Under the pieces are notes generated by a model. That model searched no databases. It worked only from the letters and a program-made list of their open reading frames with translations, and was not told where the DNA came from. From positions 608,001-672,000 of the forward strand of contig CP147779.1 in NCBI GenBank assembly GCA_037308085.1: a DNA stretch of 64,000 nucleotides. The letters are read 5' to 3'. Positions 9,172-52,400 of this stretch are shown piece by piece. The stretch is from Promethearchaeati archaeon SRVP18_Atabeyarchaeia-1 (GTDB lineage Archaea; Asgardarchaeota; Atabeyarchaeia; Atabeyarchaeales; Atabeyarchaeaceae). The position numbers and the translations under genes were made by a program. How positions within the stretch are numbered: the first letter of the stretch is position 1; each line of letters opens with the position of its first letter.

Positions 9172-9200
9172 GTCACTGCCCCCTCGTCAGAGTGATTTCT

Positions 9201-9491: not shown

Positions 9492-9550
9492 ATCTATCCC
9501 CCACCTGCGAAGATGAGTGGTTATTCATAAGTTCTGCCTCCAATTTAAGC

Positions 9551-9928
9551 TTATCGCGAGACGTTGTCGGACTCATTCCCATGCTGAAGTAAGAGATACT
9601 CGATCTCCTTCTCTTTTTCCCTCTGCTTCCTCACCAGATCGTCAAGTTCCAGTTTCAGCTCTTGGTACCTGTCAATTATGGACTCAAATTGCTTAAGCGT
9701 CTTTTTTCCTTGATCAGTGAGCTCGTATTTTATCGTCGGCTTCTTCCTTCCGCGGGGGTCAAGTTTCTCTTTCACCATGCCGCGTTGCTGTGCTTCCCTT
9801 ATCCTCTTCAAGAGGGTGCTAGGGCTCAAGTTAAGCTTCTTCAATTCACTGAAAGATTTCGCTCCATCACCGAGCATCGCCAGCAGGTCGACCATCCCTT
9901 TCTGTATCCGACTCATCTCGTCCACCAA
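9551..9928 (-). CDS. Winged-helix (HxlR/MarR-like) regulator with C-terminal coiled coil
   Basis: KSFSELKKLNLSPSTLLKRIRE...GMV...YELTDQGK. Confidence 0.75.
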   Translation of the reverse strand: MVDEMSRIQKGMVDLLAMLGDGAKSFSELKKLNLSPSTLLKRIREAQQRGMVKEKLDPRGRKKPTIKYELTDQGKKTLKQFESIIDRYQELKLELDDLVRKQREKEKEIEYLLLQHGNESDNVSR

Positions 9929-10136
9929 TACTTAGTATTGGCGTACTTATATATATCTGTATTTACGTTTTCCTATCATTACTCAATGATGTTGCTAACA
10001 TCGCAATAGCAGCCTAGATGAAGACAGCCTCTATAGATCCTATATCAGAGAGAACCTTGTGCCCAGAAAGATCACCATGTGAAAACAGTTGAAGTCTAAG
10101 GTTATTACTCAAGCGTATGCTTAATATTCATTAAAC

Positions 10137-10352
10137 TTGAAGAAATGTAACAGAGGTAGACGTATGCAAAAGCCTAGGCTATATTATTTCCCAGAGACCA
10201 GCGGTAGAAAAGCAATCTTAATTTTCGATTCAGGTTACAGTTTTCCTGACGGTAAGAGAATAGGCAACATTCACATTTACGAATTCAAAGAAACTCTTCC
10301 AGCAAGTCAGGTAGATGAGCAACTCAGAAAATACGGACATTACATTGATTGA
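10137..10352 (+). CDS. Small hypothetical protein (transposon cargo)
   Basis: Short ORF with protein-like composition after an AT-rich promoter-like stretch; no recognised motif. Confidence 0.4.
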   Translation: MKKCNRGRRMQKPRLYYFPETSGRKAILIFDSGYSFPDGKRIGNIHIYEFKETLPASQVDEQLRKYGHYID

Positions 10353-10657
10353 TACCTATCAAGTGACGATCCTAGCGAGATTAGACGTAAAGCAATTGAA
10401 GAAACGCGGAGAAATCCTCTACTACTGCGTGAATAGGTACTTCTGGAAGTTATCTCGCGACAGTTAACAGCAATACAGACCACCCTAAGACCTAACGGAA
10501 CCGAGCCGTCAACCGAAAAGTAACGACCTCAACAATCACCCGGATCAACCGCAGAGGTAACAGAACCTGAAAAACGTCAAGAGCAGAACCGAAAGGTTGG
10601 GGTTGCGGGGGCTTCTAATAGCGGCGCCCCCACACTTTTCTTGGAAGGAGGATTGGC

Positions 10658-34901: not shown

Positions 34902-35666
34902 ATGAAGATTGTGGCTTTGTGCAATCAGAAGGGGGGCGTCGGCAAGACCACTAGTGCCGTTAACCTTAGTGTGGCTGTTGGCATGCTCGGCAGCAAGGTC
35001 TTATTGATCGACTTGGATCCGCAAGCGAATTCATCCGTCATATTCTTTGGTTTTGATGTCTTCAACGCGCAACTCTCGATGTACAATGTTCTCGTTGATG
35101 AGAACGTAGGTGTTCGCGAGGTCCTTAGGCATAGTGAGGAGGGCATTGATGTTCTTCCATCGAACCTGAACCTTGCTGGGGCCGAGCTTGAGCTCACAGG
35201 CTCTATTGCTGGCGAGACCGCCCTTAGGGACAAGCTTGCTGCGGTCCAAGGTGATTATGACTTCGTCTTTATTGACTGCCCTCCTGCCCTGAATATTTTC
35301 ACAGTTAATGCTCTGGTTTCTGCAACCGACGTTTTTGTGTGTGTCCAGCCATCGTTCTTGCCTATGGTTGGGACCGAGCAATTGACGAAAACTATTAAGA
35401 TCGTCAAGGACAGACTTAACAAGCAGCTTAGGATCTCCGGCGTAATTCTTACGATGTGTGATGAGCGTAAGATAATCTCTAGGGAATCAATCAATGAGAT
35501 CAATCGGTATTTTAGTGATGTCGTCTTCGACTCTCGTATTCGTATCGACGTTAAACTTGAGGAGGCACCATCGCATACGAAGTCTATCTTCAAGTACGAT
35601 CCTGGGTCGCGAGGTGCTGAGGACTACATGAGCTTGGCCAAGGAAGTGATTAGACGTGTCCAGTAA
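34902..35666 (+). CDS. parA: ParA/Soj ATPase
   Basis: NQKGGVGKTT, IDLDPQAN, IDCPP, EAPSH. Confidence 0.93.
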   Translation: MKIVALCNQKGGVGKTTSAVNLSVAVGMLGSKVLLIDLDPQANSSVIFFGFDVFNAQLSMYNVLVDENVGVREVLRHSEEGIDVLPSNLNLAGAELELTGSIAGETALRDKLAAVQGDYDFVFIDCPPALNIFTVNALVSATDVFVCVQPSFLPMVGTEQLTKTIKIVKDRLNKQLRISGVILTMCDERKIISRESINEINRYFSDVVFDSRIRIDVKLEEAPSHTKSIFKYDPGSRGAEDYMSLAKEVIRRVQ

Positions 35667-36477
35667 TGACAAGCGCAGGCGATTGGGAAGTAGTGTTCTA
35701 GGGGAATTAGGGAGGTTAGCGCGGAGTTATGGCGTTCAGAAGATCCCAATTAACGAGATCGATCTTGGTGACTCCAAGTTCCGAACGCGTTATGATCTTG
35801 GGGAGAAGCAAATTGCAGAGTTGTCAGAATCGATAAGAAGTGAGGGTCTAATCAATCCCGTCGTTGTTCGACGCAGGGGTGACTCACGATATCAATTGAT
35901 CTCCGGGTTTAGGCGGGTTGAGGCAGTTCGCAAGTTGGGAGAGGAGGCTATCGATGCAATAGTTGTCAGCGTTGACGACGATAAGGCATTTAGGATGGCG
36001 GTTTCTGAGAATCTGAAGAGAAAGAGCCTGACGCCTATCGAGTTGGGCTTGATGTGCGATCGGCTCGTGAAAGAGGGAAGATCGTACGATGAAGTCGGTC
36101 GTCTGATGGGGCTGTCGGCCAAGCAGATCCAGCGTTATCTGCGAACTCTTAAGCTGAGCGAAGACGTAAAGCGCTCCTTGGCCAAAGGTGAGATCAACTT
36201 CTTCACCGCCCTTGAGATTGGAAAACTGGACGACGCTGTCCAGTCAGGCTTGCTGAAAAGAGTCTTGAAGGAAGCCCTGTCCACGAGGGAAGTTGCCCAA
36301 TTGGTCCGAGATATGAGGAAAAGCGAGGGAAAAAGCGACGCGATCGAGGGTCTTCCCAACGTCAGATTCAAGAAGGGACTAGTGATAATCAAGTCAACCG
36401 GCGACGACCTGACAAAAACTCTGAGGATCCTTCTCAACGAAGCAGAGAAAGGCACCATCCAAGAAATCATCGCCTAA
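35656..36477 (+). CDS. parB: ParB/Spo0J partition protein
   Basis: LSESIRSEGLINPVVV, YQLISGFRR, ENLKRKSL, central HTH; overlaps parA. Confidence 0.9.
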   Translation: MSSNDKRRRLGSSVLGELGRLARSYGVQKIPINEIDLGDSKFRTRYDLGEKQIAELSESIRSEGLINPVVVRRRGDSRYQLISGFRRVEAVRKLGEEAIDAIVVSVDDDKAFRMAVSENLKRKSLTPIELGLMCDRLVKEGRSYDEVGRLMGLSAKQIQRYLRTLKLSEDVKRSLAKGEINFFTALEIGKLDDAVQSGLLKRVLKEALSTREVAQLVRDMRKSEGKSDAIEGLPNVRFKKGLVIIKSTGDDLTKTLRILLNEAEKGTIQEIIA

Positions 36478-36509
36478 AGCTCCAGCGCCAGAGGGTATCT
36501 ATCACCGCG

Positions 36510-37801
36510 CGTTCTGTTACCTCTGCGGTTGGCGAGTTTAAATAAGATTCCTTACTTGTCTAGTTCTATGCAGGCAGTTAAGGTGGTTCAAATACCATAC
36601 GAGCCTAGAGGCGGCGTACTTAGTCTACTCGAAGCTTTCAGGAGCATGGTCAACTGCTGCATCTGCGTCGGTCTGGAAAAGAGTGTGACATCGAGGTTCA
36701 GCCTCCAAAGCGAGGTCTACCACCAGCTAAGCGGCTTCGGTCTCCACACCTGGTACAGCCTCTCAGCCATCGAGGCTGCCACCGCCATTTTGAAGAACTA
36801 CCGGAAAGCAAAAAGAAGGCACGAGAATATTCGAGTGCCGAGAGCCACGAAGCTTATGGCTAAACTGGGAAACCAAGCCTACAGAGTCGTAGACGGCAAG
36901 CTGAGAATACCAATTAAGCCGAGAGAGTATTTCTACGTCCCCTCCACAAGAGGGCGGCGCAGTTCCTATCGAACGCCAAGCTCAAGCTAGGCTCAATAAC
37001 CTTGACCGCTTGCACGGTATCAGTGGTCTTCTCAAAGACCGCTAAGATTACTGAACCAGGGAGCTATGTAGCGTATGACACGAATGAACGCTCAATAGAT
37101 GGAGCCTACGTAAGAGAAGGTGGAGAACTGACCGTTGAAAGCCACGACTTGTCAATGGTTTCAGAGGTCAGACACGGCTACTTTGAACGTGTGCGACGGA
37201 TCCAAGCTAAGTACGCGAAGGATAGGCGGGTGGCGAAGAAGATTCAGGGAAGATGGTTCGCTAACCAGAACAACAAGGTTAACACGATCCTGCACCAGGT
37301 GAGTTCAGCGATAGTTACGCAAGCGAAAACCAGAGGGGACGGTATCATCCTCGAAGAACTGAAACATGTACGCAGGACAAATAAACAGGAAAGCCCTAGG
37401 CTTCAACAGTTTCAATGGGAAGATTCAGATGATCAGCACGCACTCTAAGAGGTTGAGGCGGAGGCTCAACTCGTGGGGCTTCAGAAAGCTGCAAGGCTTC
37501 ATCGAGTATAAGGCTCTCTGGGGAGGAGTCAAAGTTGTCAAAGTAAACCCTCGGAACACTTCTAGGGTGTGCGCGGTGTGTGGGTGCGTCATGCAAGACC
37601 CGAAAGCAAGAACCCTAGAATGCTGCGGGATAGGTCGCCACGTGAATGCTTGCCTGAATATGCTTAGAATCCAGGATGAAAGCCTGTGGTTCAGGCTGGA
37701 TCGCTCCGCACGTGTAGCCGTGATTAGTCCCCTAAGAAGGGCTATGAGCCAAAGCGGAGAAGCCAACCCAAACGGTTATTAACCGCAGAGGTAACGGAAC
37801 C
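36510..37801 (+). mobile_element. tnpB-only element with IS6-type TIRs and 8-bp TSD
   Basis: Ends CGTTCTGTTACCTCTGCGGTT and AACCGCAGAGGTAACGGAACC; flanks TCACCGCG (36502-36509) and TCAGCGCG (37802-37809). Confidence 0.88.
36568..37782 (+). pseudogene. tnpB: TnpB RNA-guided nuclease, frameshifted near 36940 and 37375
   Basis: Three ORF pieces align in order with the intact copy at 47239-48465. Confidence 0.9.
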
Positions 37802-37818
37802 TCAGCGCGTATACTGTT

Positions 37819-38391
37819 TTGTATACGGGTGAAGATACCTTGAACGATGAGATTTCTGAGTCTGAATCAGCCGCAGAATCCTTCAGGAAGCTCTTCTACG
37901 ACCCTATTGTGAGGAAACTTCTGAAGAATTCTGATCTTACGAGAATTCAATTTGAGACGATTTTGATCAATTTTGTCTACGATGAGACCGTCGGCAAGGA
38001 CGGAGGGATGTATGACGAGAAGGGGCACGCTAGGACCTTGAAGAAAAGCTCTAAGGCTTGGGGAGCCAGTTCCTACTCGAAGGGTGTCTCCAGAGGCGCA
38101 TTTCGCCGAGTTCTATTTCAAGCGTGTAGAAACGTTATGCGTTCCATATACACTCTCTTTCTCCTCGGATACGTTGGAATTCTGGATACACCCGGGTTGC
38201 ATGCTTATATTGAGTTGTCGGAGATGGTGACACAGTATAAGAAGAAGAATGAGGAAGCCCAGGTAGATGGTTCGGCGACAAACAGTCCCAAGGGCGCGCC
38301 CATGAGGCTCTTGGAGAAAAGCTTGCTCAAAATGATCGATCAATATGCCTCCCCATTCAATGTCTTAGGCAAGACAAGAAGCGGAGACTAA
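37819..38391 (+). CDS. Hypothetical protein, probably helical/DNA-binding
   Basis: 190-aa ORF; VSRGAFRRVL..A..NV.RSIYTLFLLGYVG looks like a conserved archaeal family. Confidence 0.65.
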   Translation: MYTGEDTLNDEISESESAAESFRKLFYDPIVRKLLKNSDLTRIQFETILINFVYDETVGKDGGMYDEKGHARTLKKSSKAWGASSYSKGVSRGAFRRVLFQACRNVMRSIYTLFLLGYVGILDTPGLHAYIELSEMVTQYKKKNEEAQVDGSATNSPKGAPMRLLEKSLLKMIDQYASPFNVLGKTRSGD

Positions 38392-38513
38392 GAATCAATT
38401 GCAGTGGTTAGATCAACAGCGAACGCGTCGAGCGAAGAATGCTCGCAAGCCCAAATTCACTCTCAGTATCAAGACAATTGCGGCACCTCTTTTGGCAGGA
38501 GTGTGAACAATGA

Positions 38514-39083
38514 ATGTTCCAGTTGCCCCGACCGGAAGATATCAGAAGAATGAGGAAGGAAGCAAGGCTAACTCAGGTTGGGCTTGCAAAGCTTGCGAGG
38601 GTTAGCCAATCACTTATCGCCAGGATAGAATCAGGGACTGTTGATCCTAGGATATCCACACTCAGGAGGGTTCTCGAAGTTATCAACCAGAGCAATATTG
38701 GCAAGGCACCAAGGTCTACTGTTTCTCAAGTGATGTGTTCCCCAGTGATTTCTGTTCAAGCTGCAGACTCGGTGCGCTCTGCCATCGAAGTCATGGAGAA
38801 AGACGGTGTTTCCCAGCTACCTGTCATCAAGGACGGCGCCATAGTAGGCACAGTTAGCGAGGCCACAATAGTTCGTCACTTTGGCGAGAATGTGTACAAC
38901 TCTACCGTAAATGAAATCATGGACGAGAGCATGGCTGTCGTGCCACCCTCAACGGGTGTTGACGAAGCCTACGAACTAATGTCCAGAGGATACCCTGCTG
39001 TCCTAGTCGTGGACAAGGGAAAAATCGTTGGCATAGTCACGAAAATCGACCTCATAGCCCACCAGTCACGTCGCAGAGAGTAG
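38514..39083 (+). CDS. XRE-HTH plus tandem CBS transcriptional regulator
   Basis: LTQVGLAKLARVSQSLIARIESG.VDPRIST followed by two CBS repeats. Confidence 0.9.
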   Translation: MFQLPRPEDIRRMRKEARLTQVGLAKLARVSQSLIARIESGTVDPRISTLRRVLEVINQSNIGKAPRSTVSQVMCSPVISVQAADSVRSAIEVMEKDGVSQLPVIKDGAIVGTVSEATIVRHFGENVYNSTVNEIMDESMAVVPPSTGVDEAYELMSRGYPAVLVVDKGKIVGIVTKIDLIAHQSRRRE

Positions 39084-39116
39084 CTTAGCACAATCCATCA
39101 GCCACCAGAGAGTTCT

Positions 39117-39998
39117 TCATCGGAGTCTAAGGACTTTGTCCCATTGGTGGCTAACCCACTTCTTCAACTCATCTATGCCTTCCTTCGCGATGCCCTCGAA
39201 TCTCCCTTGGGGCTTGAGGTACTCTTCGATGGGGATTCTCTTCTCAGAATCGACCAAGTTCTTGCTGGCACCAGTCAGTGTGAGCTTCCCATTCTGGATC
39301 TCGAAGAGTATCCATACTCCTGACATCACTGCCAACCGTCCTATTTCCACTGTGTCGCTTGCCTCGTACAGCCACCCAGTGGGGCATGGGGCCATTATGT
39401 GAATGTACTTGGTTCCTTTGATGCCCTTAGCCTTTGCTACCTTATCGTACAGATCCTTGGGGTAGGATGAACATGCAGTTGCCACGTACTCGATTTCATG
39501 GGCTGCCATAATCATTGGGAGGTCCTTCTTGTTTTCGCGCTTTCCCGAGGGTGTCGTAGTGGTTTTCATTCCATAGGGTGTTGCGCCCGACCTCTGTATA
39601 CCCGTGTTCATGTATGCCTCGTTATCGTAACATATGTACAAGAAGTTCGTGCCCCGCTCAGCGGCTCCAGATAGCGCCTGTATCCCGATGTCTGCCGTCC
39701 CACCGTCGCCAGCCCAAGAAAGGACCGTGATGTCTTGGATGTCCTGTACCTCTAGGGCCGCCTCTACTCCAGATGCCGCCGCTGCGGCAGAAGCGAAGGC
39801 TATGTTAAGGGTAGGTATGTCAAGCGCAGACCTCGGGTATAAACCTTGGATCACGCTTGTGCAGCACGCCGGAACCACAATTATCGTTCTTCTTCCTAAT
39901 GCCTTTAGAGTGTACCTAAGCGCCAAGGTGCCGCCGCATCCTGCGCATGAGCTGTTTCCCGGCAGAAGTGTCTCCTCTTCAGGAAATCCCAGTATCAT
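39117..39998 (-). CDS. porB: Pyruvate/2-oxoacid:ferredoxin oxidoreductase beta subunit
   Basis: CAGCG, GDGGTADIG, YDNEAYMNTGIQRS, PCPTGW. Confidence 0.93.
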   Translation of the reverse strand: MILGFPEEETLLPGNSSCAGCGGTLALRYTLKALGRRTIIVVPACCTSVIQGLYPRSALDIPTLNIAFASAAAAASGVEAALEVQDIQDITVLSWAGDGGTADIGIQALSGAAERGTNFLYICYDNEAYMNTGIQRSGATPYGMKTTTTPSGKRENKKDLPMIMAAHEIEYVATACSSYPKDLYDKVAKAKGIKGTKYIHIMAPCPTGWLYEASDTVEIGRLAVMSGVWILFEIQNGKLTLTGASKNLVDSEKRIPIEEYLKPQGRFEGIAKEGIDELKKWVSHQWDKVLRLR

Positions 39999-40002
39999 CT
40001 TG

Positions 40003-41205
40003 TTATTGCACTCCCCTTTTCAAGTTGAACCACTTTTCTTCCCTTTCTGTTTCTCCCTTTTCCAAGGCCTTTGCAGCTTCTTCAAACATTGCCTTTTGAT
40101 GATCGGGCGTTATGTCTCGTCCACCAAGTCCTGCCACGTATCCAAGCACAAGTGGTTGCCTCCCCATTCCGTAGAGCGCGGACCTTGCTTCGGTAAACAC
40201 AGCTCCGCCTGATCCATAAGAGATGTTCCTGTCCAGAATAACAAACGCCTTCACTCTTTCGGCGAGGTCTCTCAGTTCCACCGATGGGAAGGGCCTGAAT
40301 ACCCTGAGTTTGGCCGCGCCTACTTTATGTCCATCTTCTCTCATCTCATCTACGACTGCTCTTGCCTGTGCGGCCAGCGTTCCCATACTCACCATTACGA
40401 TTTCGGCGTCGCTGCAGCGGTACTCTTCGATCAGCCCACCGTGGCTTCGTCCGAATTTCCGCTTGAATTCACCATCAACCCGGCTCAGTGCCTCTCTCAC
40501 AGAATTCATTGATTTGTGGGCGAGATATCTGTTCTCCATGTAGCTCGGGGTCCCTTCGTCCCCAGGCTCATCCATGTTGAGGCTCCCCAATGTCATTGGG
40601 TTGTCGATGTCGAGCAGCAGGTGTTTTTTTGAGTCGTGGGGTATGAACTCATCGACATCTGCCTGGGCTGGAAGCTCAAGCGGTTGAGCTGTATGTGAAA
40701 GAATGAATCCGTCCAAGCAGATCATGGAGGGAAGAAGCGTCTCCTCAGAGATTCTGTAAGATTGAATGACAGTATCGAATATTTCCTGGTTGTCTTCGAC
40801 GTAGAACTGGATCCATCCGGTGTCCCTCTGAGATATGGAGTCGTTATGGTCGACATGAATGTTCCATGGTCCCAGCGCTCTGTTCACCACACACATTACA
40901 ACCGGTAGCCGCATAATGCTTGTCCAGTGCAACATTTCGTGCATGTATAGAAGTCCGTGGGATGACGTCGCTGTGAAGACTCTTGCTCCCGCTGCGCACG
41001 CACCTATGCAAGCGGCCATAGCTGAGTGTTCTGACTCTACTCTGACATATTTCGCCTTCAGCTGGCCATCCTCAATTATCTTGGCCAGCCTTTCGACAAT
41101 CGTTGTCTGAGGCGTAATGGGATACGCAGCAACGACCTGTACCCGCGCGAATCTTGCCGCTTCCGCAGCGGAGTAGTTTCCAGTAGTTATTGTTACCTGA
41201 CCCAT
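40003..41205 (-). CDS. porA: Pyruvate/2-oxoacid:ferredoxin oxidoreductase alpha subunit
   Basis: AAYPITPQT, VESEHSAM, FTATSSHGL, GLGGRD. Confidence 0.93.
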   Translation of the reverse strand: MGQVTITTGNYSAAEAARFARVQVVAAYPITPQTTIVERLAKIIEDGQLKAKYVRVESEHSAMAACIGACAAGARVFTATSSHGLLYMHEMLHWTSIMRLPVVMCVVNRALGPWNIHVDHNDSISQRDTGWIQFYVEDNQEIFDTVIQSYRISEETLLPSMICLDGFILSHTAQPLELPAQADVDEFIPHDSKKHLLLDIDNPMTLGSLNMDEPGDEGTPSYMENRYLAHKSMNSVREALSRVDGEFKRKFGRSHGGLIEEYRCSDAEIVMVSMGTLAAQARAVVDEMREDGHKVGAAKLRVFRPFPSVELRDLAERVKAFVILDRNISYGSGGAVFTEARSALYGMGRQPLVLGYVAGLGGRDITPDHQKAMFEEAAKALEKGETEREEKWFNLKRGVQ

Positions 41206-41208
41206 GCT

Positions 41209-41490
41209 CTATTCACTCTCTCGAGACATCTCTATAGCCTTAAATTTGCACTCACGGGCGCAAATTCCACAACCCTTGCAGTAAGTATAATCAATCTTGG
41301 GGAAGCCGTCCTCTCCCTTTGATATGGCTCCCTCAGGGCAGAACTGCCAGCAGAGCATGCACTTCTTGCATTTCGCAGGGATTATTGAGGGTTTGAATGT
41401 TCTCCAAAGACCAGTTTTGCCGCCAGCGCCTTTGGTGGGTTTAGAATATTCTGTAATAGGTCTGGGTGTTTCTTCGCTTGTTTTTGACAT
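41209..41490 (-). CDS. porD: 2-oxoacid:ferredoxin oxidoreductase delta subunit
   Basis: TGLWR..KP; two CxxCxxCxxxC motifs. Confidence 0.92.
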   Translation of the reverse strand: MSKTSEETPRPITEYSKPTKGAGGKTGLWRTFKPSIIPAKCKKCMLCWQFCPEGAISKGEDGFPKIDYTYCKGCGICARECKFKAIEMSRESE

Positions 41491-41520
41491 AAAGATCCAC
41501 TTTCTCCAATTCCGCGAGTT

Positions 41521-42096
41521 TTACTGATCTACCTGATGGACTTCTTGATAAGCTTCCTCTGCCCCTTTCAGGTTCCGCTTCCCCACTTCGCCCTTCCAGC
41601 CTTCAAGAATTGCCCTTCCCACGTTCTTCATGTCCACAAGTTTTGTTGCCTTAGAAAACGCTCCAAGAATTGGGGTGTTCACCACAGGTTGCCCCGCGAC
41701 CACGAGGCCCAGCTTGAGCGCTATCGCGGTTGCATCCACAGCGAAAATCTGGAGCTTCTGTCGAGTATCCGCCTCAACGCGCTCTTTCGTCGTGTTCACC
41801 ACTAGAAAAGCGTTCTCTCTAACCCCTTCCAGTACGTTGGTGATTCTTAACAAAGTCGAATCTAGGACCACCAAGACATCAGGGTTGTATATCTGACTGT
41901 GAACAAGTATCGGGTTCCTTGATATTCTAGTGAAGGCCCGGATTGGAGCCCCTCTCCTTTCAGCTCCGAAGAAAGGAAAGGCTTGCGTGCCTTTGAAACC
42001 GGCATACATTGCAGCCTTAGCCAGCAAAGTAGCTGCAGTCACCGCGCCCTGACCACCGCGGCCGTGCCACCTTATTTCCCAGATTTTCTCGGGCAT
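41521..42096 (-). CDS. porG: 2-oxoacid:ferredoxin oxidoreductase gamma subunit
   Basis: EIRWHGRGGQGAVTA, FGAERRGAP. Confidence 0.93.
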   Translation of the reverse strand: MPEKIWEIRWHGRGGQGAVTAATLLAKAAMYAGFKGTQAFPFFGAERRGAPIRAFTRISRNPILVHSQIYNPDVLVVLDSTLLRITNVLEGVRENAFLVVNTTKERVEADTRQKLQIFAVDATAIALKLGLVVAGQPVVNTPILGAFSKATKLVDMKNVGRAILEGWKGEVGKRNLKGAEEAYQEVHQVDQ

Positions 42097-42284
42097 GAAA
42101 ATTGACTCCCTAGAAACGCTTTAGACTCATCGGCGAAGTGCCTGTCATCCAAGCGCCGCCGAAGTTTGCCCCTCTTGGCGAGGAGTAGATCTCACAGTGA
42201 TATCAAAGGTTAAACTCTCTCGCCGACACTCATTAGAAAGCGCTACTACAAAATAAATTAGTCTATGTTTGTTCGGTTTATTCG

Positions 42285-42568
42285 AATGGACGGAAACTCA
42301 CGGAAATGCAGAGGAGAAACCCCAAATCCTCCAGGTACGAGAAGAATCTTCTGCATGGAATACGCATATCGGACTAACGAAACCGTAGGTGTTGGCTTTC
42401 TGCATATCACCAAGTGTCATTCGAGACTTGGTGACGTAGCAGCCGCTTGCCCACCTGTCCTGCCAGGCGCCGGCTCAACTCCATTGCCGGCAGCAGTCGG
42501 ATTCCCACCTGGAGGAACTATGCCAAAGTTGAACCCAAAAAAGAGGTTTGGTGGGTTTTGTAACGTCA
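42285..42568 (-). ncRNA. Candidate structured non-coding RNA of unknown class
   Basis: Long closing stem, nested hairpins and a possible 7-bp pseudoknot; G-U pairs favour the minus strand; TATA-like TTTATAAA at ~42590-42597. Confidence 0.5.
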
Positions 42569-42716
42569 CAGAGTTGTTGAAAGTAACTTTTTATAAATAA
42601 GGCAAATTAATAGTAAGGCTGACTTGCGCCGTCACGCTTTGACAAAATCATGCTAATAAGGATTCGTCATAGCGACCAGCGACGGGTGAACTGAGTTTCT
42701 TTGAGGGAGAGAGTAG

Positions 42717-44549
42717 TTGTCGAAAGAGGAAACGGTTTCGAGAATGTACAGCAGGCTTTTCAAATTGCCTCGGCTTTCTGGGATACTTGTGCTTGGGATC
42801 GGTTTCAGTGCCCTGCTGGATATTCTTGTCGTGAACGCATTCCTTCCTCTCCTGGCAGAAGCCATCTTCCAGCTTACACTCTTTGCCGTGCTGCTCATTG
42901 GGTTTGCCTTCTTGCTGAGCTCCTTTCTGCTTTCTTCGTTTCTATCCAGCCGGGTCTTCTTGCACAGAGTTTCGGGGGTCATGAACTTAAGGAGGAGCCT
43001 TGGTGTCTCGCTATTCTCGCTGATTTCGACGAGCGGCATATTTCTCGTGGGCTGGATCCTCCTTGTGCTGTCGCCTCTGTCCCTGTTGAGGGAATTTGCT
43101 GTTTTTGGACTGGCGATTGGTTTCGTTATTAGATTACTTGTGGATTCAGTCATGCTACAGGGCCACCTCGGCCGCACCCTAGCAGATTCCCTGAGTCAGC
43201 CTATACTCTGCTCCATATGGTTTCTCTGGCTTCTCGGGCTTTCTTGGTATATAGATTTCATCCTCCGTTTTATTGGTGTGACAGTTCTTTTCGCTGTCTC
43301 GACTTTGCTGTATGTCAAGGCCATAGGTTCGCAGCTGAAGAAATTCACGGGCATTGACGGTCGATCTTTCTTCAGTTCCTTCCTGAGCGAGTGGGGGGCT
43401 GGCCTCGGAGAAGAGCTTGAGAAGATCATAGACAAGAATTCGGTGAAGAGGGATCTGAAGGTGGCGATACTTTCATTCATAGATATGAAAGGGAAAACGA
43501 GGTCAGTCCTCATTGTTCCCACAATTCATCCAGGTCCCTTCAGGGGGGTCGGTTCGAGTGATCTTCCAGCCTACCTGATGCGCAGCCTGGGAGACAAGCT
43601 AGGATGCCCGGTAGTGTGCGCTCATGGTCCCAGTACGCACGGGGAAAACTTGGTTAGATCCAACCAGCGCGAAGAGGTCTATAGGCAGCTAGCGAAACTC
43701 CTTGGAGAGTCCCCCACGTATGATCGTTCAAGCCCACTGGCTAAGGCAACTAGCGCTGGCGTTTCTGTTGGATGCCAAATATTCGGGGACTTTGCCCTTT
43801 TGACAGGGGGTTCCTCGTCCTCGGTTCCGATAGATGACGTCAGCCTTGATGTGGGTGAGGCTGCAGTAGGTGCAGCTAGGAAATACGCTAAGGAAGCATT
43901 TTTCATCGATTCTCATAGTTGCATAGACGCCTCAAGCGATTATGTCTGGTCAGGGTCGAAGATCAGTGAAGCCTTTGTTAAGGCGTCTGAGAAGGCTACT
44001 GAACGCGCTTCTGGTCTAGCGAAATCGGCCTTCAGAGTTGGGGCGGCCAAAACAAGATCTACGGGTATCTCCCTTAACGAGGGAATGGGAGAAGAGGGTG
44101 CGTCAGCGCTGGTTATGAAGATCGCCGACCAGAAGATTGCATACGTCTTCTTCGATTCAAATAACCTTGTATCTAACATAAGTGAACAGATCGCGACGGA
44201 GTTAAAGAAGAGGGGCTTCAGTGAAGTCGAGGTCCTTACTAGTGACACACACACCACCAGCGCTTTAACTCCTGGGAAGATGGGGTATAACCCGCTGGGT
44301 TACTCCACTCCTTACGCCAAGCTGCTTGAGATTGTCTTATCTACCGTAACTACAGCCGAGCAGAACATGGAGGACGCAGTTGTATGTGCAGGGGTTCATA
44401 CACTCAAAGACGTGAAGGTCGCTGGTGAAGAGAATATGCAGAATATTCTAAAGGGGACAAGGGGTTCCCTACGTGCTGCGAAGAATCTCGCTCCTTTGGC
44501 TTTTGGTCTACCCACGCTATTAAGTATTATCATGCTTCTCTTAGTGTAG
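42717..44549 (+). CDS. DUF2070-family membrane protein
   Basis: Multi-TM N-terminus; IHPGPF, HG.STH, IDSH, DSNN, TSDTH. Confidence 0.85.
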   Translation: MSKEETVSRMYSRLFKLPRLSGILVLGIGFSALLDILVVNAFLPLLAEAIFQLTLFAVLLIGFAFLLSSFLLSSFLSSRVFLHRVSGVMNLRRSLGVSLFSLISTSGIFLVGWILLVLSPLSLLREFAVFGLAIGFVIRLLVDSVMLQGHLGRTLADSLSQPILCSIWFLWLLGLSWYIDFILRFIGVTVLFAVSTLLYVKAIGSQLKKFTGIDGRSFFSSFLSEWGAGLGEELEKIIDKNSVKRDLKVAILSFIDMKGKTRSVLIVPTIHPGPFRGVGSSDLPAYLMRSLGDKLGCPVVCAHGPSTHGENLVRSNQREEVYRQLAKLLGESPTYDRSSPLAKATSAGVSVGCQIFGDFALLTGGSSSSVPIDDVSLDVGEAAVGAARKYAKEAFFIDSHSCIDASSDYVWSGSKISEAFVKASEKATERASGLAKSAFRVGAAKTRSTGISLNEGMGEEGASALVMKIADQKIAYVFFDSNNLVSNISEQIATELKKRGFSEVEVLTSDTHTTSALTPGKMGYNPLGYSTPYAKLLEIVLSTVTTAEQNMEDAVVCAGVHTLKDVKVAGEENMQNILKGTRGSLRAAKNLAPLAFGLPTLLSIIMLLLV

Positions 44550-44585
44550 CAGATCCTGCCTATATTAGTAAAGGGTGTCTGAGGC

Positions 44586-45083
44586 TTGCCCAAGAAGTCT
44601 GGTACCTGCCCGTATTGCATGTCTCGCTCGTTTGAGTTACGAGAGGCTGAAACCGTGCTACCCCATTTTGGCAGGGTCCTGATCATGACTTCTCTTTGCA
44701 GGACTTGCGGGTATAGACACAGCGATGTGACCTCTCTAGAGGATCATGGACCCAAGAGGTACGAGGTCAAAATATCGAGGCGAGAAGACCTTAGGATCAA
44801 GATTGCAAGAGCAGGCTCTGCCTCGGTAGAGATCCCGGAATTTGGGCTACGGTTAGATCCAGGTGACGATAGCCAATCGTTCATAACGAACATCGAGGGT
44901 ATACTGCAGAGATTCGAGGAGGCAATACTGCGACTCAAAACCTTGGATTCCAGCAAGACAGCTGAGCTTGACAATGAATTGCATAGAATTGCGGTTGCTA
45001 AGGAAGGGAAGATCCCCTTTACGGTAATAGTTGAGGACCCTCTGGGGAATACCACGGTAATTGATGACTACTTAGTCTCGTAG
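44586..45083 (+). CDS. ZPR1 zinc-finger protein
   Basis: CPYC, PHFG, C..CGYR.SD, FITNIEGIL, FTVIVEDPLGN. Confidence 0.9.
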   Translation: MPKKSGTCPYCMSRSFELREAETVLPHFGRVLIMTSLCRTCGYRHSDVTSLEDHGPKRYEVKISRREDLRIKIARAGSASVEIPEFGLRLDPGDDSQSFITNIEGILQRFEEAILRLKTLDSSKTAELDNELHRIAVAKEGKIPFTVIVEDPLGNTTVIDDYLVS

Positions 45084-45153
45084 TGCCAGGTTGCGACCGT
45101 TCTTGGAGAGCGTCTTCAGGCGAAGGCAACGGAGATAAATTTATCTGTTTGCG

Positions 45154-45453
45154 TTGGGGTACGTGACTCGGGTCTTGAGATTGGAGGAGGCAAAGCCAAG
45201 GTTATCGGCCATAGGCGTCCTTAGCGAATGCGTGGGCAGAAGGATCAGGGTTATTGTACAGGACAGCTTTGGCTATGAAGGGACTCTTTCTGCGGTGTCT
45301 CAGTCCCCTCCATGTCTATTTCTCTCTGACGCCGAGGCTATCGTAATCAGGACAACCATAGCTGATCCAGTGCCGAGAATCGTCAGCAAGGAAAGAAGAA
45401 GCTCGATATTCGTAAACCTGGATTCCATCCTAAGAATTGAGATACCGGACTGA
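45154..45453 (+). CDS. Small Sm/Lsm-fold-like protein
   Basis: L...VGRRIRV......YEGTL.....LFLSDAE and IFV..DSI..IE resemble the Sm1/Sm2 motifs. Confidence 0.5.
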   Translation: MGYVTRVLRLEEAKPRLSAIGVLSECVGRRIRVIVQDSFGYEGTLSAVSQSPPCLFLSDAEAIVIRTTIADPVPRIVSKERRSSIFVNLDSILRIEIPD

Positions 45454-45496
45454 CGATATTTAACTAAGAATGCAGTTGCGCCCAGCCCTTCACTCT

Positions 45497-45670
45497 CTAC
45501 AAAATTCCCAGATGCGCCAGAACCACGAGCACAATCAGGCCGACGGACATCATGGTGACCACTACGGGGCTGAACTTGACACCCTTCATCTCATCCTGAA
45601 AGAATCTCATCAAGCCGGCACCAGTGGCTGGCATGACTCCCTCTTCCCGTCTTCTTGCCCTTTTCGACAT
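45497..45670 (-). CDS. secG: Preprotein translocase Sec61beta/SecG (57 aa, missing from ORF track)
   Basis: MSKRARRREEGVMPATGAGLMRFFQDEMKGVKFSPVVVTMMSVGLIVLVVLAHLGIL; AGL.RFF motif plus one TM helix. Confidence 0.9.
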   Translation of the reverse strand: MSKRARRREEGVMPATGAGLMRFFQDEMKGVKFSPVVVTMMSVGLIVLVVLAHLGIL

Positions 45671-45838
45671 TCCGCAGCTCCTCCAGAGCTTCTTTCACTA
45701 GTGCATATTGAATCAATGGAATGGTTATTAAGGTTATTGTTCAAGAGGTGCGCTAGTTTCAGCGAAGAAAGATTAAATTATGTATTTGAAATCTATCTCA
45801 TGTAGGCTAGAAAAAGAATTCCCGGAGGATGCGAAAGT

Positions 45839-47205
45839 TTGGAAATTGATTCTGCCAAGCGAACGTATACGAAGATTAGGGATTTGTTGCGTGAACACCA
45901 TGAATGGTTTGATGCTAGTATACCTTTGATAGCTAGCGAGAATGTTCCGAGTCCTGCAGTTCGTGCAGCGGTCGCTTCAGATTTTGGCAACCGGTATGCG
46001 GAAGGCTGGCCTGGAGAGTAAGTGCTCGGCTCCAACTCTGAGCATTTTCCAGAAAGCGGGTCTATGCCGGTTGCAAATATATCGATCAGGTTGAGCTGAT
46101 TTGTAGCGACTTAGCTAGGAAGCTCTTCAAAGCCGAGTTTGCCGATGTTAGGCCCATCTCTGGTGTTGTAGCCAATCTGGCTGTTTACACAGCCTTCTCC
46201 GAGCCGGGAGACCGAATGATGGCGTTACCGATCCCCGACGGCGGACACATAAGCCACGCAAAGAGGTCTTTAGGCGGGACGGCGGGATCCGTTCACGGGC
46301 TTAGAGTCAGGTACTTCGAGTATGACGAGAACGAGCTCAACATCGATGTTGACAGAAGCATAAAGCGGATAAAGAAGACGATAAGCAAGGGCAAAGCCAT
46401 CACTCTGTTCATGTTTGGTGCTAGCGTCTTTCCCTTTCCGCACCCTGTCAAAGAGTTCCGGGAGATCGCTGATGAGATGGGCTCATTCATAGCATACGAC
46501 GGGGCCCATGTGTCAGGGTTAATTGCCGGTGGGTGCTTCCAAGATCCCCTGAGAGAAGGGGCTGACGTATTCTCCATGAGTACACACAAGACTATGCCTG
46601 GTCCGCAGGGAGGCCTCGTAGTTTCTTGGGAGAAGTACGCTGAGCGAATAAAGAAAGCTACATTTCCTGGCCTCACGAGCAACCATCATCTCAACACGGT
46701 TGCTGGAAAAGCGATAGCATTTGCCGAGATGATGGCATTCGGCAAGGAGTACGCTAGGCAGATTATTGCAAATGCCAAAGCTCTCGCTCAGGCCCTACAC
46801 GAGGAAGGCTTCAACGTGCTGGCAGAGCGTAAGGGGTTCACCGAATCCCACACTATATTGGTTGACATAACGGGCACTCCCCTCAAAGATGGTCGTGCCT
46901 GCGAGCAGGCCCTGGAATCATCAAACATAATCATCAACAGAAATCTCCTGCCTTGGGACATTCGGAAAGGTCGCAACTACCTTGCACCTGGGGGCATACG
47001 CTTGGGGACGAGCGAGGTAACAAAGTTAGGCATGAGAGAATCCGAGATGAGAGAAATAGCATCCCTCATTAGGCGCGTCATCATCGATCGCAAGAATCCC
47101 AATGACATGAGCCGGGTCGTAAAGGAATTTAGGCAGCCATTCAAGAAGGTCAAGTTCTGCTTTGAATCACAGGCTGACGCCTACGAGTACTTCGACATAA
47201 AATAG
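45839..47205 (+). CDS. glyA: Serine hydroxymethyltransferase, split by a 38-nt putative intron: join(45839..46016,46055..47205)
   Basis: LIASEN, RYAEGWPG|ERVYAGCKYID, GGHISH, YDGAH, STHKT (PLP Lys), GIRLGT. Confidence 0.92.
46017..46054 (+). other. Putative bulge-helix-bulge mRNA intron
   Basis: Central helix CUGG(46011-14)/CCAG(46049-52), bulges AGA and AAA, inner stem AAGUGCUC/GAGCAUUU; contains the in-frame TAA. Confidence 0.8.
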
Positions 47206-47231
47206 CACTATGCGATTGGCACTGTAGCTTT

Positions 47232-48523
47232 GGTTCTGTCAAGTCCTCGGTTGATGACCGTTTGAGCTGACTTCTCCGCTTTGGCTCACCGCCTTGTTTA
47301 AGGGTCGGATCACTGCTACACGTGCGGAGCGATCTAGGGTGAACCGCACCCTTTCATCTTGGATTTTGAGCATGTTCAAGCAGGCATTCACGTGGCGGTT
47401 TGTTCCGCAGCATTCTAGAGTTTTCGCTTTCGGGTCTTGCATCACGCACCCACACACCGCGCATACCCTAGAAGTGTTCCTCGGGTTTACCTTGATGGTT
47501 TGGACTCCTTCCCAGAGAGCTTTGTACTCGATGAAGCCTTGCAGCTTGCGGAAGCTCCACGAGTTCAGCCTCCGCTTCAGCCTCTTGGAGTGTATGCTAA
47601 TCCTTTGAATTCTCCCATTGAAGTTGTTGGCGCTTAAGACCTTGCGGTTGACTGCCTTGCGGATGTATGTGAGGTCTTCGAGGATAATGCCTTGCTCTCT
47701 ATTTTTCGCTTGCCTAACTATGGCTGAACTCACTTGATGCAGAACCGTGTTGACCTTGTTGTCCTGATTGGTGTACCAGTTTCTCTGAATCCTCTTCGCC
47801 ACCCGCCTGTCCTTAGCGTACTTGGCTTGAGCCCTTCGAACACGTTCGAAGTACCCGTGCCTAACCTCTGAAACCGCCGATAAATCATGGCTCTCGATAG
47901 TCAGTTCTCCACTTTCTTCTAGGCTAGCTCCATCAATTGAGCGCTCGTTCGTGTCGTACGCAACGTAGCTCTTGGGCTCGGTAACCTCAGCGATCTTCGA
48001 GAAAACCACTGTAACCGTGCAAGCAGTCAATGTGACCGAGCCTAACTTCAGCGAGGCGTCCGACAGGAACTGTACCGCCCTCTTATGAAAGGGGATGTAG
48101 AAGTACTCTCGCGGCTTGGTGGGTATCCTCAGCCTGCCGTCAACAACCCTATAACCCTGATTCCCAAGTTTAGCCGTGAGTTTCGTGGCCCTCGGCACTC
48201 GAATGCTCTGTCGCCTTCTCTTCGCTTTCCGGTGATTCTTCAGGATGGCAGTGGCAGCCTCGATGGCTGAGAGGCTGTACCAAGTGTGGAGACCGAAATC
48301 GCCTAGCCGGCGGTACACCTCGCTCTGCAGGCTGAACCTTGAACTAATGTTCTTCTCCAGACCTACACGGATGCAATAGTTAACCATGCTCTTGAAGGTC
48401 TCAAGGAGACCAAGGACACTGCTCGTAGGCTCGTATGGCATCTGCACCGCTTTGATTGCCTGCATAAAGTCATGTAAGCTAAACCACTCATTTAAACCCA
48501 CTAACCGAAGACTTGACAAAACG
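47232..48523 (-). mobile_element. tnpB-only element with IS6-type TIRs and a perfect 8-bp TSD
   Basis: Ends GGTTCTGTCAAGTCCTCGGTT and AACCGAAGACTTGACAAAACG; GTAGCTTT at 47224-47231 and 48524-48531. Confidence 0.9.
47239..48465 (-). CDS. tnpB: TnpB (Cas12f-like) RNA-guided nuclease, intact frame
   Basis: RuvC-I VAYDTN, RuvC-II IILEDL, NPRNTS, CAVC..ECC Zn finger, RuvC-III RHVNA. TTTAAA upstream inside the element; stop codon lies in the TIR. Confidence 0.92.
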
Positions 48524-48630
48524 GTAGCTTTTAAGTAGTTTCAGACTTTATGTATAGTACCAGACATGGTTCTTTTCGGCTTCGGAGCGGGAGACTGCCT
48601 GGAAGTGTGCTGAGCTAACTACTGGGAGGT

Positions 48631-49476
48631 TTGCCAATGACCAAGATTCAGGAAGTAATGTCGACAAATAACCTTGCGGTCGAGATACCGGGAAGAAGAA
48701 AGGACGCAATGGATATCATGGTCAAGAACGGCTTGACTTGGCTACCAGTCGTGAAGAAAGGTACCAATACTCTAGTGGGCGCAGTATCCCGTTATGACCT
48801 AATGAGCAAGCCTGAGGAAGACCAGCTGGCGCTTCTCATGAGAAGGGACCCAATCACCGTGTCAGCAAATGATGACGTCAAAGATGCGGTTAAGCTTATG
48901 CTTGGTGCCAATATTGCTAGGCTTCCAGTCGTTTCCTCCAAAATGGAGCTGATTGGGGCGCTCACAGTCACCGATGTTGTCCAGAAAGTCGTCGTTGAAG
49001 TCGACAAATCGAAGATCGTCAAGTCCTACGTCGAGCGAGATATCACATGTATCTGGGAAGGTACGCCACTCCCTGTTGCACATCGCATAATGAGACTTTC
49101 GAATGAACAGGCTTTACCCGTGCTAAACGATGATGGCGAATTGGTGGGAATAATAGGTGAGCCCGATTTCCTCTCGGTGAGTGAAGAAGTCGATGAGGAG
49201 AAAGCTGCAAAGACCACTGCTGATAGCGAGGGTACGGATTGGGATTGGGATACGTCAAATAGGATCATTATCGCCAAGAGAAAACTGCGAATACCAAACA
49301 AGCCGGTAAAGGACGTCATGATCAGAAACGTCGAGACAACCGTGGAACAAGCAAGTGTGGCAGAATGCGCAATGATGATGAAGAAATATGGGATAGACCA
49401 ACTGCCGGTTCTTAACGCCAAGGGCTCGTTAAGTGGCGTCGTCAGAGATACAGACTTGCTGAGGGCGCTGATATAG
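48631..49476 (+). CDS. CBS-domain protein (four CBS repeats)
   Basis: Four LPVV/LPVL...LVG-type repeats. Confidence 0.9.
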   Translation: MPMTKIQEVMSTNNLAVEIPGRRKDAMDIMVKNGLTWLPVVKKGTNTLVGAVSRYDLMSKPEEDQLALLMRRDPITVSANDDVKDAVKLMLGANIARLPVVSSKMELIGALTVTDVVQKVVVEVDKSKIVKSYVERDITCIWEGTPLPVAHRIMRLSNEQALPVLNDDGELVGIIGEPDFLSVSEEVDEEKAAKTTADSEGTDWDWDTSNRIIIAKRKLRIPNKPVKDVMIRNVETTVEQASVAECAMMMKKYGIDQLPVLNAKGSLSGVVRDTDLLRALI

Positions 49477-49492
49477 TGCTTCTGGACCTTGC

Positions 49493-52400
49493 TTAGCTTG
49501 GCCCGTCAAAGTCCGTAAGCCTCTTCTGAATGGGAGTCTTGCCTTCAAAGACGGAAGCCAAGTTCTGCTCTATCATCTCCATTCTCTCTTCAAAGACCTT
49601 TCCGACATCATAGTCTTTGATTAATCCCTTCGCAAGATTGAAGTATTTCGTAACAGTGTTCTTTGATACGGTTGTCAGGATCTTTCCTCCACAATTCAGG
49701 CAGTGCCCAATGAGAGGAACTCTTCTGTACTTTGCATTGCAGTCTACGCATCTGAACTTCTGTGAAGTGAATGCCCTTAAGCAGCCGAGTAGGTCGGGTA
49801 TTAGGTGAGTCTGCAGAATCCTTCTTGCAACATCTGAAGGGTCGACAGCCCTGATCTTCTCCGCCAGTCCAAGTTGCGCCTTAATCTTCGCCTGCGTAGT
49901 TTTCTGTAACACGTAGGCGCTTCTCCTCGGTCCACTTGCTATTCCCCCAGTAGGATGTGAGAAGTAGAACCCCTCGTACTGTTCAGGCTTTCCAAGCCTC
50001 TTCGACACCACCTCGATCAGATCCTCCAACTGCTTTGGATCAGCGCCTTCAAGCGTCTTCTTATAGAAGGCCAGAGGATAACTCTTCATAAGATCAAAGT
50101 TGTGCGCCTCGTCGTCCACCTCCTCCGGGTCTATCGTCGTGGTGACAACGAGAGGAGCATCCATCATTCCCCCCCTGCTGCCAGGCAAAAAGGACTTCGA
50201 GAAATTGACCACCGCGTCCAACGCCAGCATGATCGAATCCTCGTCTCCGTCACAGTCGTACGTGGCAAGAGATCCAAATCCTGCCACAAAGGTCTTATTC
50301 TCCCCGTCTAACACCAAATCATAGACATAGCGTTCGTTATGCTTCGTTAATCGCTGAAGCTCACCTATCTTGACAATACTGAAATCACCGAAGTTTGATT
50401 GCTGCTCTCCCCTCATTGCACGTGACTCAACTGCAAGTGACAGTTTGTGTTTCTTGTTACCGAAAAGCAGGTCTACCATGTTACGCAGATCGGTCGAATA
50501 GTAGCGCATAGAATAGAATGTTGTCGGCTTCTTCGAGAAGTTGGTCGTCTTTGTCTCGGTTCCGAAGTGAGGGAAAAGCCCCAGATTCAAAGAAATCAGC
50601 GCCAGATGGTTTAGGAGTGGCTTGTTGACAGATGTTATTGTGAGCGATTTATCCACGTTGCCGTCTCCGGCAACCATGCCGGCTAGCAGTCCCTTCTGGA
50701 ATTCCTTTGAGAAGGTCAGGCTCTTGTCTGCGCGTTTCCCATGTGACTTCGCGCTCAACCCGAGTATCTGTCTAAATAACTCGTAATAGATCCTCCCGCT
50801 TAGTGTGGCTACGTATAACCCTCGTTCTCTCTTTGAGACTGAGGGAGTTCTACCAAAGAGAAGTCTACAGTAGCTCATGATGCGCCTTAGCACTATCCTC
50901 TCTTTGGCTGGCCATGAGACTTGGTAAACATACTTAGTGCTATCACGCTCCCAGCTAGTGCGGCTGTGACCGTCTGAAAGATACAACCCCGACAGCTCCC
51001 CCAATTCTCTAGACAGAGGGAGCGAGGCTGGAAGGCGGGCACCGTTTTTCTGATAGGAAAGTGTCAGAGACGTGCGTTTGATGTCGAGTTCCAGTTCCTT
51101 GGCTACAAAAATGTAGAGATCTAACGGGATGGAATCTTTATCTACATATCCCCAGAGTGATTTCCGCGAGATTTGCGGCTTCTTCTGCCTGACAAAGGAC
51201 GCGTAACCACCCGATCTGGTTATGGCTGCTACGATGGCTCCTTTTGCACCGTGCACTCTGATCCTCGGCTTGTCAGGGTGAGAGCTGAAGTACTGTATCA
51301 GGTCTAACTCATCTAGGTGAGCGTGCGGTGGCATTCGCGAAAGGGTAAGGAGCCTGTCGTCGGCCCTCAAGTTTCTTGCTTCGACATATCTTACTCCGTC
51401 TTGGTTTTGCACCACCATCCTGTGATCTGGTGTTACGACGATCTCCCTGCCTGTGCTTGTCAGGATTCTATACAGTTCCTTTGGTGCATCTAGTTTGATG
51501 ACTTCACGAATCCCCTTCCGAATCAAGGTACCATGTGCATCAACGGAAAGCACATGGAACTGCGTCAGATCCTCCTTCTCAAGGTCAGCGATCCTACGAA
51601 CAACAAGCTGGTTGTGTGTGTCTATTAGGAGAACCTCCTCGTTTCCTATGACACAATTTCTTCTCTTGGCTGCATGCCAATATGGGTGCGCGAAGCAGAC
51701 TGAGGTTCTTGTGAATCCGACGATTCTCCCTATTATCCCAACCGAGGTGTGTGGCGCGAGTCCTATTACAAGATGCCCTACTAGGTCTTCCTTGGAATTA
51801 GCTTGGTAGAATGGGTCTAGACTATAGACTCTTTCCAAGAGTTGATCGAGGAACCTTGATGCCCTCAGCAGATAGTCTGCGCAGTCTTCTGGTATGACTA
51901 CATCCTGAACTTTCAGTTCGAGTATCTGGTCTTCTCTCTCGAGCTTGTTGCCAAGGTAGTCTATCTCGTATCCGAGTCTAATTAGCCGATCGACGCTCAC
52001 GTTTACTTCTTTAGAGGTAAAGTGCGTGAGCGGTGCGTCGGTTGCATCATACCTTGTGGTTCCATCTTTGTATACGTAAAGGGAGTACTTCGCTCTAAGT
52101 ATTGCCTTTTCAAGAAGTTCGGGCTCCTTCCTTCTACTTGTGAGTCCCCGTACACCTTTCACTTCCTTTTGGCCCGCACCCATCCTATTTATCGCGTCTG
52201 CAAATAACTTGTGAATTTCTATCTCTCTTCTATAGTATGAACTTGTAGCTCCACCACACCTGGGGCAGACATCGCCCTCTGTCATCATGTTGCAGCGGGT
52301 GCAAGTTTTCACGATGATGGTGTTCTTACCACAGCTCTGGCATCTCTGGTAGAGCGACTCCTCACCGCAATTGAGGCACTTTCTTCTGGAGACCTCGACC

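Follow-up and report, generated by a model that had tools for sequence, protein, structure and literature searches.

A TnpB element with IS6-like ends and 8-bp target duplications in an Atabeyarchaeia genome, probably mobilised in trans and carrying a predicted guide RNA

Introduction

TnpB is known to cut the empty donor site of IS605 and thereby restore the copy that was excised, a role tied to excision that leaves no duplication. In IS1341-type elements (tnpB-only members of IS200/IS605) and in the IS605 TnpB homing model (Meers et al. 2023; Zedaveinyte et al. 2023; 10.1101/2023.03.14.532601, 10.1101/2023.11.20.567912), a single tnpB is accompanied by an RNA scaffold that runs over its 3′ end into the flank, and a motif in the upstream flank makes the empty site the target. 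The element reported here, at positions 36510-37801 of the window (the whole 64-kb stretch that was analysed, bases 608001-672000 of a single 2.81-Mb contig of an Asgard archaeon), resembles these systems in its single tnpB, in the position of its scaffold and, if the motif beside it is used in the same way, in its target. IS200/IS605 elements, however, have asymmetric hairpin ends and make no duplication, whereas we found 21-bp inverted repeats and 8-bp duplications. The duplicated 8-mer, moreover, separates the motif from the element, which is not so in IS605, and would itself become part of the guide.

Altae-Tran et al. (2023, PNAS; PMC10691335) described six DDE-associated TnpB branches (DDE-1 to DDE-6) with inverted terminal repeats, as well as solo TnpBs that share those ends and were suggested to be mobilised in trans; IS630 is the only partner named in the main text. 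The element reported here is alike in that inverted repeats like those of a DDE transposon enclose TnpB, whose 3′ end is near the transposon end (<250 bp), and in the occurrence of solo TnpBs. It differs in having an IS6-like partner where that main text names IS630, and in that TnpB and transposase were never in one element among the best 80 of 374 transposase loci. The original prediction allowed that a trans-mobilised TnpB family of this kind might be undescribed; in that respect it was anticipated, the pairing of TnpB with DDE transposons having been published in 2023, and the details of the IS6-like partner add to it. Judging the DDE branches from the main text of PMC10691335, a literature search found no published IS6-TnpB pairing. 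That main text has no 8-mer as guide start, one-sided motif, RNA hairpin built from the repeat, RNA-only mini-elements or left-tip decay. New here are the three-helix RNA running into the right end, the RNA-only elements of 257-381 bp, the one-sided YTTR motif whose last base tracks the clade, and the decay of the left tip.

Bacterial IS6/IS26 and archaeal IS6-like elements (Harmer and Hall 2019, PMC6807381) share with this family the GGTTCTGT ends and the 8-bp duplication, and the putative partner transposase matches the IS240/IS6 profile. The family ends, GGTTCTGTT, match the first 9 bases of the bacterial IS6/IS26 consensus GGTTCTGTTGCAAA, with CG at the left tip of the reported copy. The repeat is longer than 18 bp, as in the archaeal IS6-like group, and it has been questioned whether that group is part of the IS6/IS26 family proper (PMC6807381). 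Unlike IS6/IS26 elements, the reported element has no internal transposase, and its passenger is TnpB with its RNA. By description only, it also resembles Fanzor elements (Bao and Jurka 2013, PMC3627910), in which a TnpB homologue is a passenger with inverted repeats and target duplications; those elements, however, have eukaryotes and giant viruses as hosts and different transposase superfamilies.

Results

The element is 1292 bp long and ends in a 20-nt inverted repeat (36511-36530 and 37781-37800, 95% complementary), which forms most of the 21-bp IS6-like left terminal repeat CGTTCTGTTACCTCTGCGGTT (36510-36530, plus strand) and of the right one, GGTTCCGTTACCTCTGCGGTT (37781-37801, minus strand, read inwards). 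It is flanked by the 8-mers TCACCGCG on the left (36502-36509) and TCAGCGCG on the right (37802-37809), which agree in 7 of 8 bases. The only gene is tnpB (36569-37782, plus strand; group 1, see below), identified by Pfam PF07282 at 3.6e-14, above the cut-off; the NCBIfam guided_TnpB score, 89 bits, was under its cut-off of 100. Two frameshifts make the gene a pseudogene: a base has been lost after 36938 (-1) and there is one extra base at 37379 (+1). Its stop lies 19 bp from the element end. Upstream of the ATG at 36569, inside the left end, is a candidate archaeal TATA box, TTTAAATA (36537-36544, plus strand), which is conserved in the left ends of other copies. The 3′ part holds a putative guide-RNA (omega RNA) scaffold (37659-37801, plus strand; genome 645659-645801; 109.7 bits with our covariance model R1) of three covarying helices, the last partly made of the inner right repeat. 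The element is real but in decay: its gene has two frameshifts and its duplication one mismatch. A ParB-like open reading frame (35656-36477, plus strand) stops about 25 bp before the element. ParB-like genes are reported from the mobile elements of Atabeyarchaeia (PMC11529989), and the element may therefore lie within or next to a further integrated element.

To locate further ends we used as a pattern the 20-mer GTTCTGTTACCTCTGCGGTT, taken from the left arm of the element. With up to 3 mismatches it occurred at four sites in the 64-kb window, namely both ends of 36510-37801 and both ends of an IS6-like transposon at 6149-10567 (19-20 of 20 bases matching), and it was absent from 100 of 100 shuffles of the window. 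The identity of the two sets of ends, claimed in the original prediction, is thus borne out. A second copy, at 47232-48523 on the minus strand, carries an open, intact tnpB (47239-48465; intact family genes encode 408 aa), a scaffold at 47232-47374 and a perfect duplication, GTAGCTTT, at 47224-47231 and 48524-48531. Its type B ends are indeed the predicted variant, altered alike on both sides (GGTTCTGTCAAGTCCTCGGTT / CGTTTTGTCAAGTCTTCGGTT). Both copies therefore fit the predicted description of tnpB-only elements with terminal repeats of about 21 bp and 8-bp duplications (7/8 and 8/8, respectively); tnpB is the sole gene as claimed, but intact only in the second.

Genome-wide, the family comprises 9 full-length copies, 77-86% identical, 2 internally deleted copies and a number of solo ends. 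The tnpB frame is open in five of the nine, and dN/dS among intact copies (0.13-0.23) indicates purifying selection. The copies are old (dS 0.5-0.9), which we counted against the model of trans-mobilisation and homing set out below. Duplications of the full-length copies were 8/8 in three, 7/8 in five and 6/8 in one; neither internally deleted copy had one. A second TnpB group, 37-39% identical to the first, is bounded by related ends (GGTTCTGTTAACTCTTCGGGT) and 8-bp duplications, both in this genome, where it has four full-length insertions, and in two relatives, one of the same genus (G001) and one of the same family (G002). The genome also contains about 40 TnpB-type genes in total, three Y1 transposase genes that adjoin other tnpB genes, and two IS6-type DDE genes.

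The orthologous sites in these two relatives are empty. Alignment showed the flanks of both window copies to be contiguous there, with one 8-mer each: ATTTA-TCAGTGCG-TATAC (G001) and GTTTA-TCAATCCG-TATAC (G002) at the site of the reported copy and, in tnpB direction, CTATTTA-AAAGCTAT (G001) and GTATTTA-AGAACTAT (G002) at that of the sister. The single 8-mer that the original prediction expected is therefore present at each. It is preceded by TTTA at both sites in both genomes; the occupied reported site reads TCTA at these positions (36498-36501, plus strand, directly 5′ of the left 8-mer).

We also mapped contigs from three further wetland DNA runs and an RNA run to 35500-49500. Contigs spanned both junctions of both window elements and none joined across either element, giving no sign of presence/absence polymorphism in assemblies that drop rare variants. 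An RNA contig on tnpB (47450-47590) was rejected as evidence of expression: it has 13 differences, as expected of a related copy, and does not cover the scaffold. Many unrelated metagenomic contigs piled up on a short stretch, 39590-39630, inside an open reading frame at 39117-39998 (minus strand); this stretch seems to be an enzyme motif of wide conservation, not a repeat.

Beyond this genome, a metagenome scan gave 80 TnpB relatives (33-77% identity), and GGTTCTGT-type end pairs surrounded 40 of the 80. Perfect 8-bp duplications were found at 13 of these loci (12 distinct), 7/8 duplications at three more and a 9-bp one at another. Counting 8 of the 9 full-length copies (8/8 or 7/8), the perfect duplications in the relatives and the 16 metagenomic loci with at least 7/8, the duplications foreseen for homologous loci recur. 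IS6-like ends were absent around distant TnpB relatives (29-36% identity) in four genomes (G009, G018, G019, G037). Members of the family are numerous among Asgard archaea, Bathyarchaeia and Nitrososphaeria.

The IS6-like transposon at 6149-10567 is 4419 bp long, has perfect ends, the same as those of the reported element, and is flanked by TGAAAAAA/TGAAAAAC. It contains a 251-aa DDE transposase (7503-8258, minus strand) and cargo genes; profile and covariance model searches found neither TnpB nor the guide-RNA scaffold in it. The transposase appears to be of the IS6 type (PF13610, 2.5e-17, above the cut-off; NCBIfam IS6 score 116 bits, below its cut-off of 125), and it lacks about 130 N-terminal residues, a SWIM finger and a zinc ribbon, that are found in a 387-aa copy elsewhere in the genome and in most relatives. 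The enzyme that shares the exact ends of the reported copy is thus the truncated one, which we counted against mobilisation in trans. The full 387-aa enzyme (genome 549899-551059), with SWIM finger and zinc ribbon, belongs to a 6554-bp IS6-like transposon (genome 549276-555829). A perfect 8-bp duplication, TGGAGAAC, flanks that transposon, and its ends closely resemble those of TnpB group 2. The cargo of that transposon includes a 997-aa open reading frame, and a TnpB-type gene lies just past its end (about 556653-556793). The cargo of 6149-10567 (6359-7519 and 8298-9928) comprises a 272-aa protein without a Pfam match beside a weak DUF4325 (STAS-like) protein, a weak aspartyl-protease-like frame, a DUF5678 protein and an HxlR-type winged-helix regulator. 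At 2621-6079 (minus strand) the window also holds a 1152-aa A-type ATP synthase subunit whose translation reads as if it held a large insert with intein-like boundaries.

One-per-species genomes contained 374 relatives of the transposase. The best 80 of the 374 (62-80% identical over the best segment) belong mostly to Bathyarchaeia, Nitrososphaeria and Asgard archaea. Ends of this kind, each with an inner repeat of the end core, bounded elements of 2-8 kb at 43 of these 80 loci, and in 35 of the 43 the duplications agreed in 7 or 8 of 8 bases. By tblastn, TnpB was in none of the best 80 (one fragment adjoins an element, at locus L134), and the RNA model gave only 20-28 bits, at repeats, so that no guide RNA was found in any of them either. 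Hence no element was found with both TnpB and an IS6-like transposase.

The RNA was delineated from the last 150 nt of 52 elements, anchored on the right tip and folded with RNAalifold. The consensus has a hairpin with an invariant GGTTC loop, a long-range helix and a terminal hairpin in which the inner part of the right repeat forms the 3′ arm, so that AGAACC stays unpaired before the flank. Pairing held in 95.1% of cells, against 30-39% with slid partners; the covariation score was 0.63 against 0.08-0.13 in slid controls, and was reached by 0 of 500 shuffles; double changes occurred in 15 of the 18 base pairs. The scaffold overlaps the last 120-odd bases of tnpB. Stems lie within the coding sequence, amino acids changing in step with them, and in 14 of 15 pairs synonymous divergence is lower across the final 53 codons. 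The upstream arm of the 47232 copy carries a change that compensates for the variant repeat. We conclude that a structured RNA, predicted to be a guide RNA, overlaps the 3′ end of tnpB and ends at the transposon end. A sliding conservation profile of the nine copies, tried as an RNA finder, was flat (0.72-0.90); it was covariation across distant relatives that revealed the RNA. Rfam gave no match at E up to 1 in 47100-48650.

With the covariance model, the right ends of all TnpB elements scored more than 90 bits, and the IS6-like transposon 6149-10567 gave no match. Five short elements with IS6-like ends, a full scaffold and no tnpB scored equally high (genome 868840-869096, 1526452-1526708, 537694-537951, 2198749-2199010 and 763237-763617), as did three solo ends with a full scaffold and no tnpB (genome 1260433, 2205851 and 673143). 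Since they score as high as TnpB elements, the 257-381-bp elements are RNA-only derivatives.

The two tips of the TnpB elements have fared differently. Across 53 elements, mutations are frequent in the outermost four bases of the repeat upstream of tnpB, and the downstream tip hardly varies (GGTT in 22 of 53 on the left against 51 of 53 on the right, p = 4e-10), while both tips are canonical in transposase-bearing elements. The right tip is probably held by the RNA. The CG upstream and GG downstream tips noted in the original prediction are one case of this family-wide asymmetry.

When 32 independent insertions were oriented by tnpB, the four bases before the left 8-mer read YTTR, with Y in 26, T in 25, T in 30 and R in 29; a recount on 33 insertions gave T at -2 in 31 and R at -1 in 29. 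The sister copy reads CTTA (reverse complement of 48532-48535). The trinucleotide TTR was on the tnpB-upstream side in 21 of 33 and mirrored on the other side in 4, three of which have it on both sides. The last base was A in nine and G in none of the group 1 insertions, against 4 A and 16 G in the others (Fisher 7e-5), and it follows the RNA/TnpB clade, not the end subtype. The RNA-only elements, whose RNAs are group-2-like, have TTG on the side predicted by the RNA direction (two of four need a one-base end shift), yet they share their end subtype with the group 1 copy at 47232, which has TTA. Transposase-bearing elements, which lack the RNA, also have TTR (-3 to -1) on exactly one side in 24 of 35, and never on both. 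In these 24 it was upstream of the transposase in 13 and downstream in 11, and moving the position by 1-4 bases reduced the count to 0-1. Before the motif, 6-12 bases further out, comes a TTATAA-like hexamer; a weaker AT-rich signal is upstream of TnpB elements. The motif may therefore originate as a landing preference of the transposase or for promoter-like DNA, and the features peculiar to RNA-bearing elements are a constant side and a last base that depends on the clade.

The TnpB family profile matches solved TnpB and Cas12f chains at 1e-11 to 1e-14. Group 1 proteins keep the RuvC-I Asp and the RuvC-II Glu but have His at the position of the RuvC-III Asp, so that the D-E-D triad is incomplete; all six aligned proteins read DRH/NRH-V-N there, which makes cleavage by group 1 TnpB uncertain. 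Group 2 TnpBs, in elements of the same architecture, have the full canonical triad, and the solved TnpB/Cas12f chains likewise carry the catalytic Asp at the RuvC-III position.

Discussion

The element thus consists of a left 21-bp repeat, a TATA-like promoter, tnpB, the scaffold and a right repeat that closes the scaffold, together about 1292 bp of what would be a non-autonomous transposon. Its anatomy argues that an archaeal IS6-like DDE transposase acting in trans very probably moves it and makes the 8-bp duplication. The original prediction of mobilisation by IS6 transposases is therefore supported in general, but the enzyme it named, at 7503-8258, is the N-terminally truncated one; that copy and the full 387-aa one are both candidate sources. 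Transcription through the right end would then yield a guide made of the duplicated 8-mer and the adjoining flank, and TnpB with this RNA would recognise the unoccupied allele, YTTR followed by the 8-mer and flank. The occupied site would escape recognition because the repeat tip GAACC stands in the place of the motif. Cutting or binding of the empty site would let recombination copy the element back, as shown for IS605 TnpB, while the 257-381-bp RNA-only elements would borrow both proteins. The scheme would amount to the IS605 homing logic adapted to a target-duplicating transposon. We consider this combination, a trans-moved IS6-ended TnpB element with a guide to its empty site, the likely account as a whole. 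Its parts differ in strength: that the guide is the 8-mer plus flank and that TnpB targets the empty site is, from the layout of the sequence, slightly favoured, and we lean to about the same degree towards YTTR being the TnpB recognition motif.

Several other explanations were weighed against this scheme. That the element is an ordinary tnpB-only member of the IS200/IS605 or IS607 type, moved by a Y1 or serine enzyme and bounded by inverted ends and 8-mers through chance, might be entertained in a genome with three Y1 genes and some 40 TnpB-type genes. It is contradicted by the absence of the 20-mer end from all shuffles, by duplications at dozens of independent sites, by the single 8-mer at empty sites and by the same ends flanking DDE-transposase transposons, and we regard it as extremely improbable. 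No Y1- or serine-type end architecture, which would have told against the original prediction, is needed to account for the element; Y1 elements coexist elsewhere in the genome. A more serious contender takes YTTR and the outer AT-rich, TTATAA-like stretch as a target preference of the IS6-like transposase, or as promoter DNA bound by transcription factors, that TnpB does not use, the fixed orientation of TnpB elements then reflecting selection for read-in transcription or another polarity. The one-sided TTR of 24 of 35 transposase elements that have neither TnpB nor RNA (13 upstream, 11 downstream), together with the hexamer before it and its weaker counterpart upstream of TnpB elements, is what this explanation would lead one to expect. 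It does not, however, account for the fixed side in RNA-bearing elements (21 against 4, three of the latter on both sides), nor for RNA-only elements in which the motif is on the side predicted from the RNA direction, nor for a last base that varies with TnpB/RNA clade within the same host family and not with end subtype; the elements also have a TATA-like box of their own. We think it rather unlikely.

The remaining doubt concerns what TnpB does at its target. Group 1 TnpB could bind DNA under RNA guidance as a repressor or targeting factor, and not act as a nuclease, in which case any benefit to the element would be other than cut-and-repair homing. The His that replaces the RuvC-III Asp in six of six proteins, the purifying selection that acts on the protein despite it, and the existence of nuclease-dead TnpB derivatives (reported in PMC10705468) are in keeping with such a role. 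The retention of the RuvC-I Asp and RuvC-II Glu, the argument of Altae-Tran et al. that conserved Asp-to-His TnpB branches probably retain activity (made in the text of PMC10691335), and the canonical site of group 2 within the same architecture speak for a nuclease, and we hold a mere binder to be doubtful. More tentatively, at somewhat below even probability, the landing and recognition preferences may have converged: if the one-sided landing motif of the transposase came to match the recognition motif of TnpB, insertions in the right orientation would guide against their own empty site, RNA-only elements would parasitise both proteins, and copies without a left tip would persist by homing alone.

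If the homing scheme is true, RNA-guided homing extends to a DDE transposon that makes duplications and is probably replicative. TnpB here rides a target-duplicating, probably non-excising transposon, and the anatomy offers a testable answer to how guide and motif could work in that setting, with the motif outside the duplicated 8-mer and the 8-mer starting the guide. In addition, the family is a source of compact archaeal TnpB/RNA pairs, for which TTA and TTG motifs are predicted, and of a natural variant of the active site, Asp to His, that is under purifying selection.

Cointegrate formation is a hallmark of IS26 (PMC6807381). At eight loci (L139, L144, L148, L164, L170, L179, L191 and L212) transposase elements abut another IS6-like tip at a distance of exactly 8 bp. 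These head-to-tail or nested arrays with 8-bp spacing are reminiscent of IS26 arrays and, suggestively only, bear on cointegrates.
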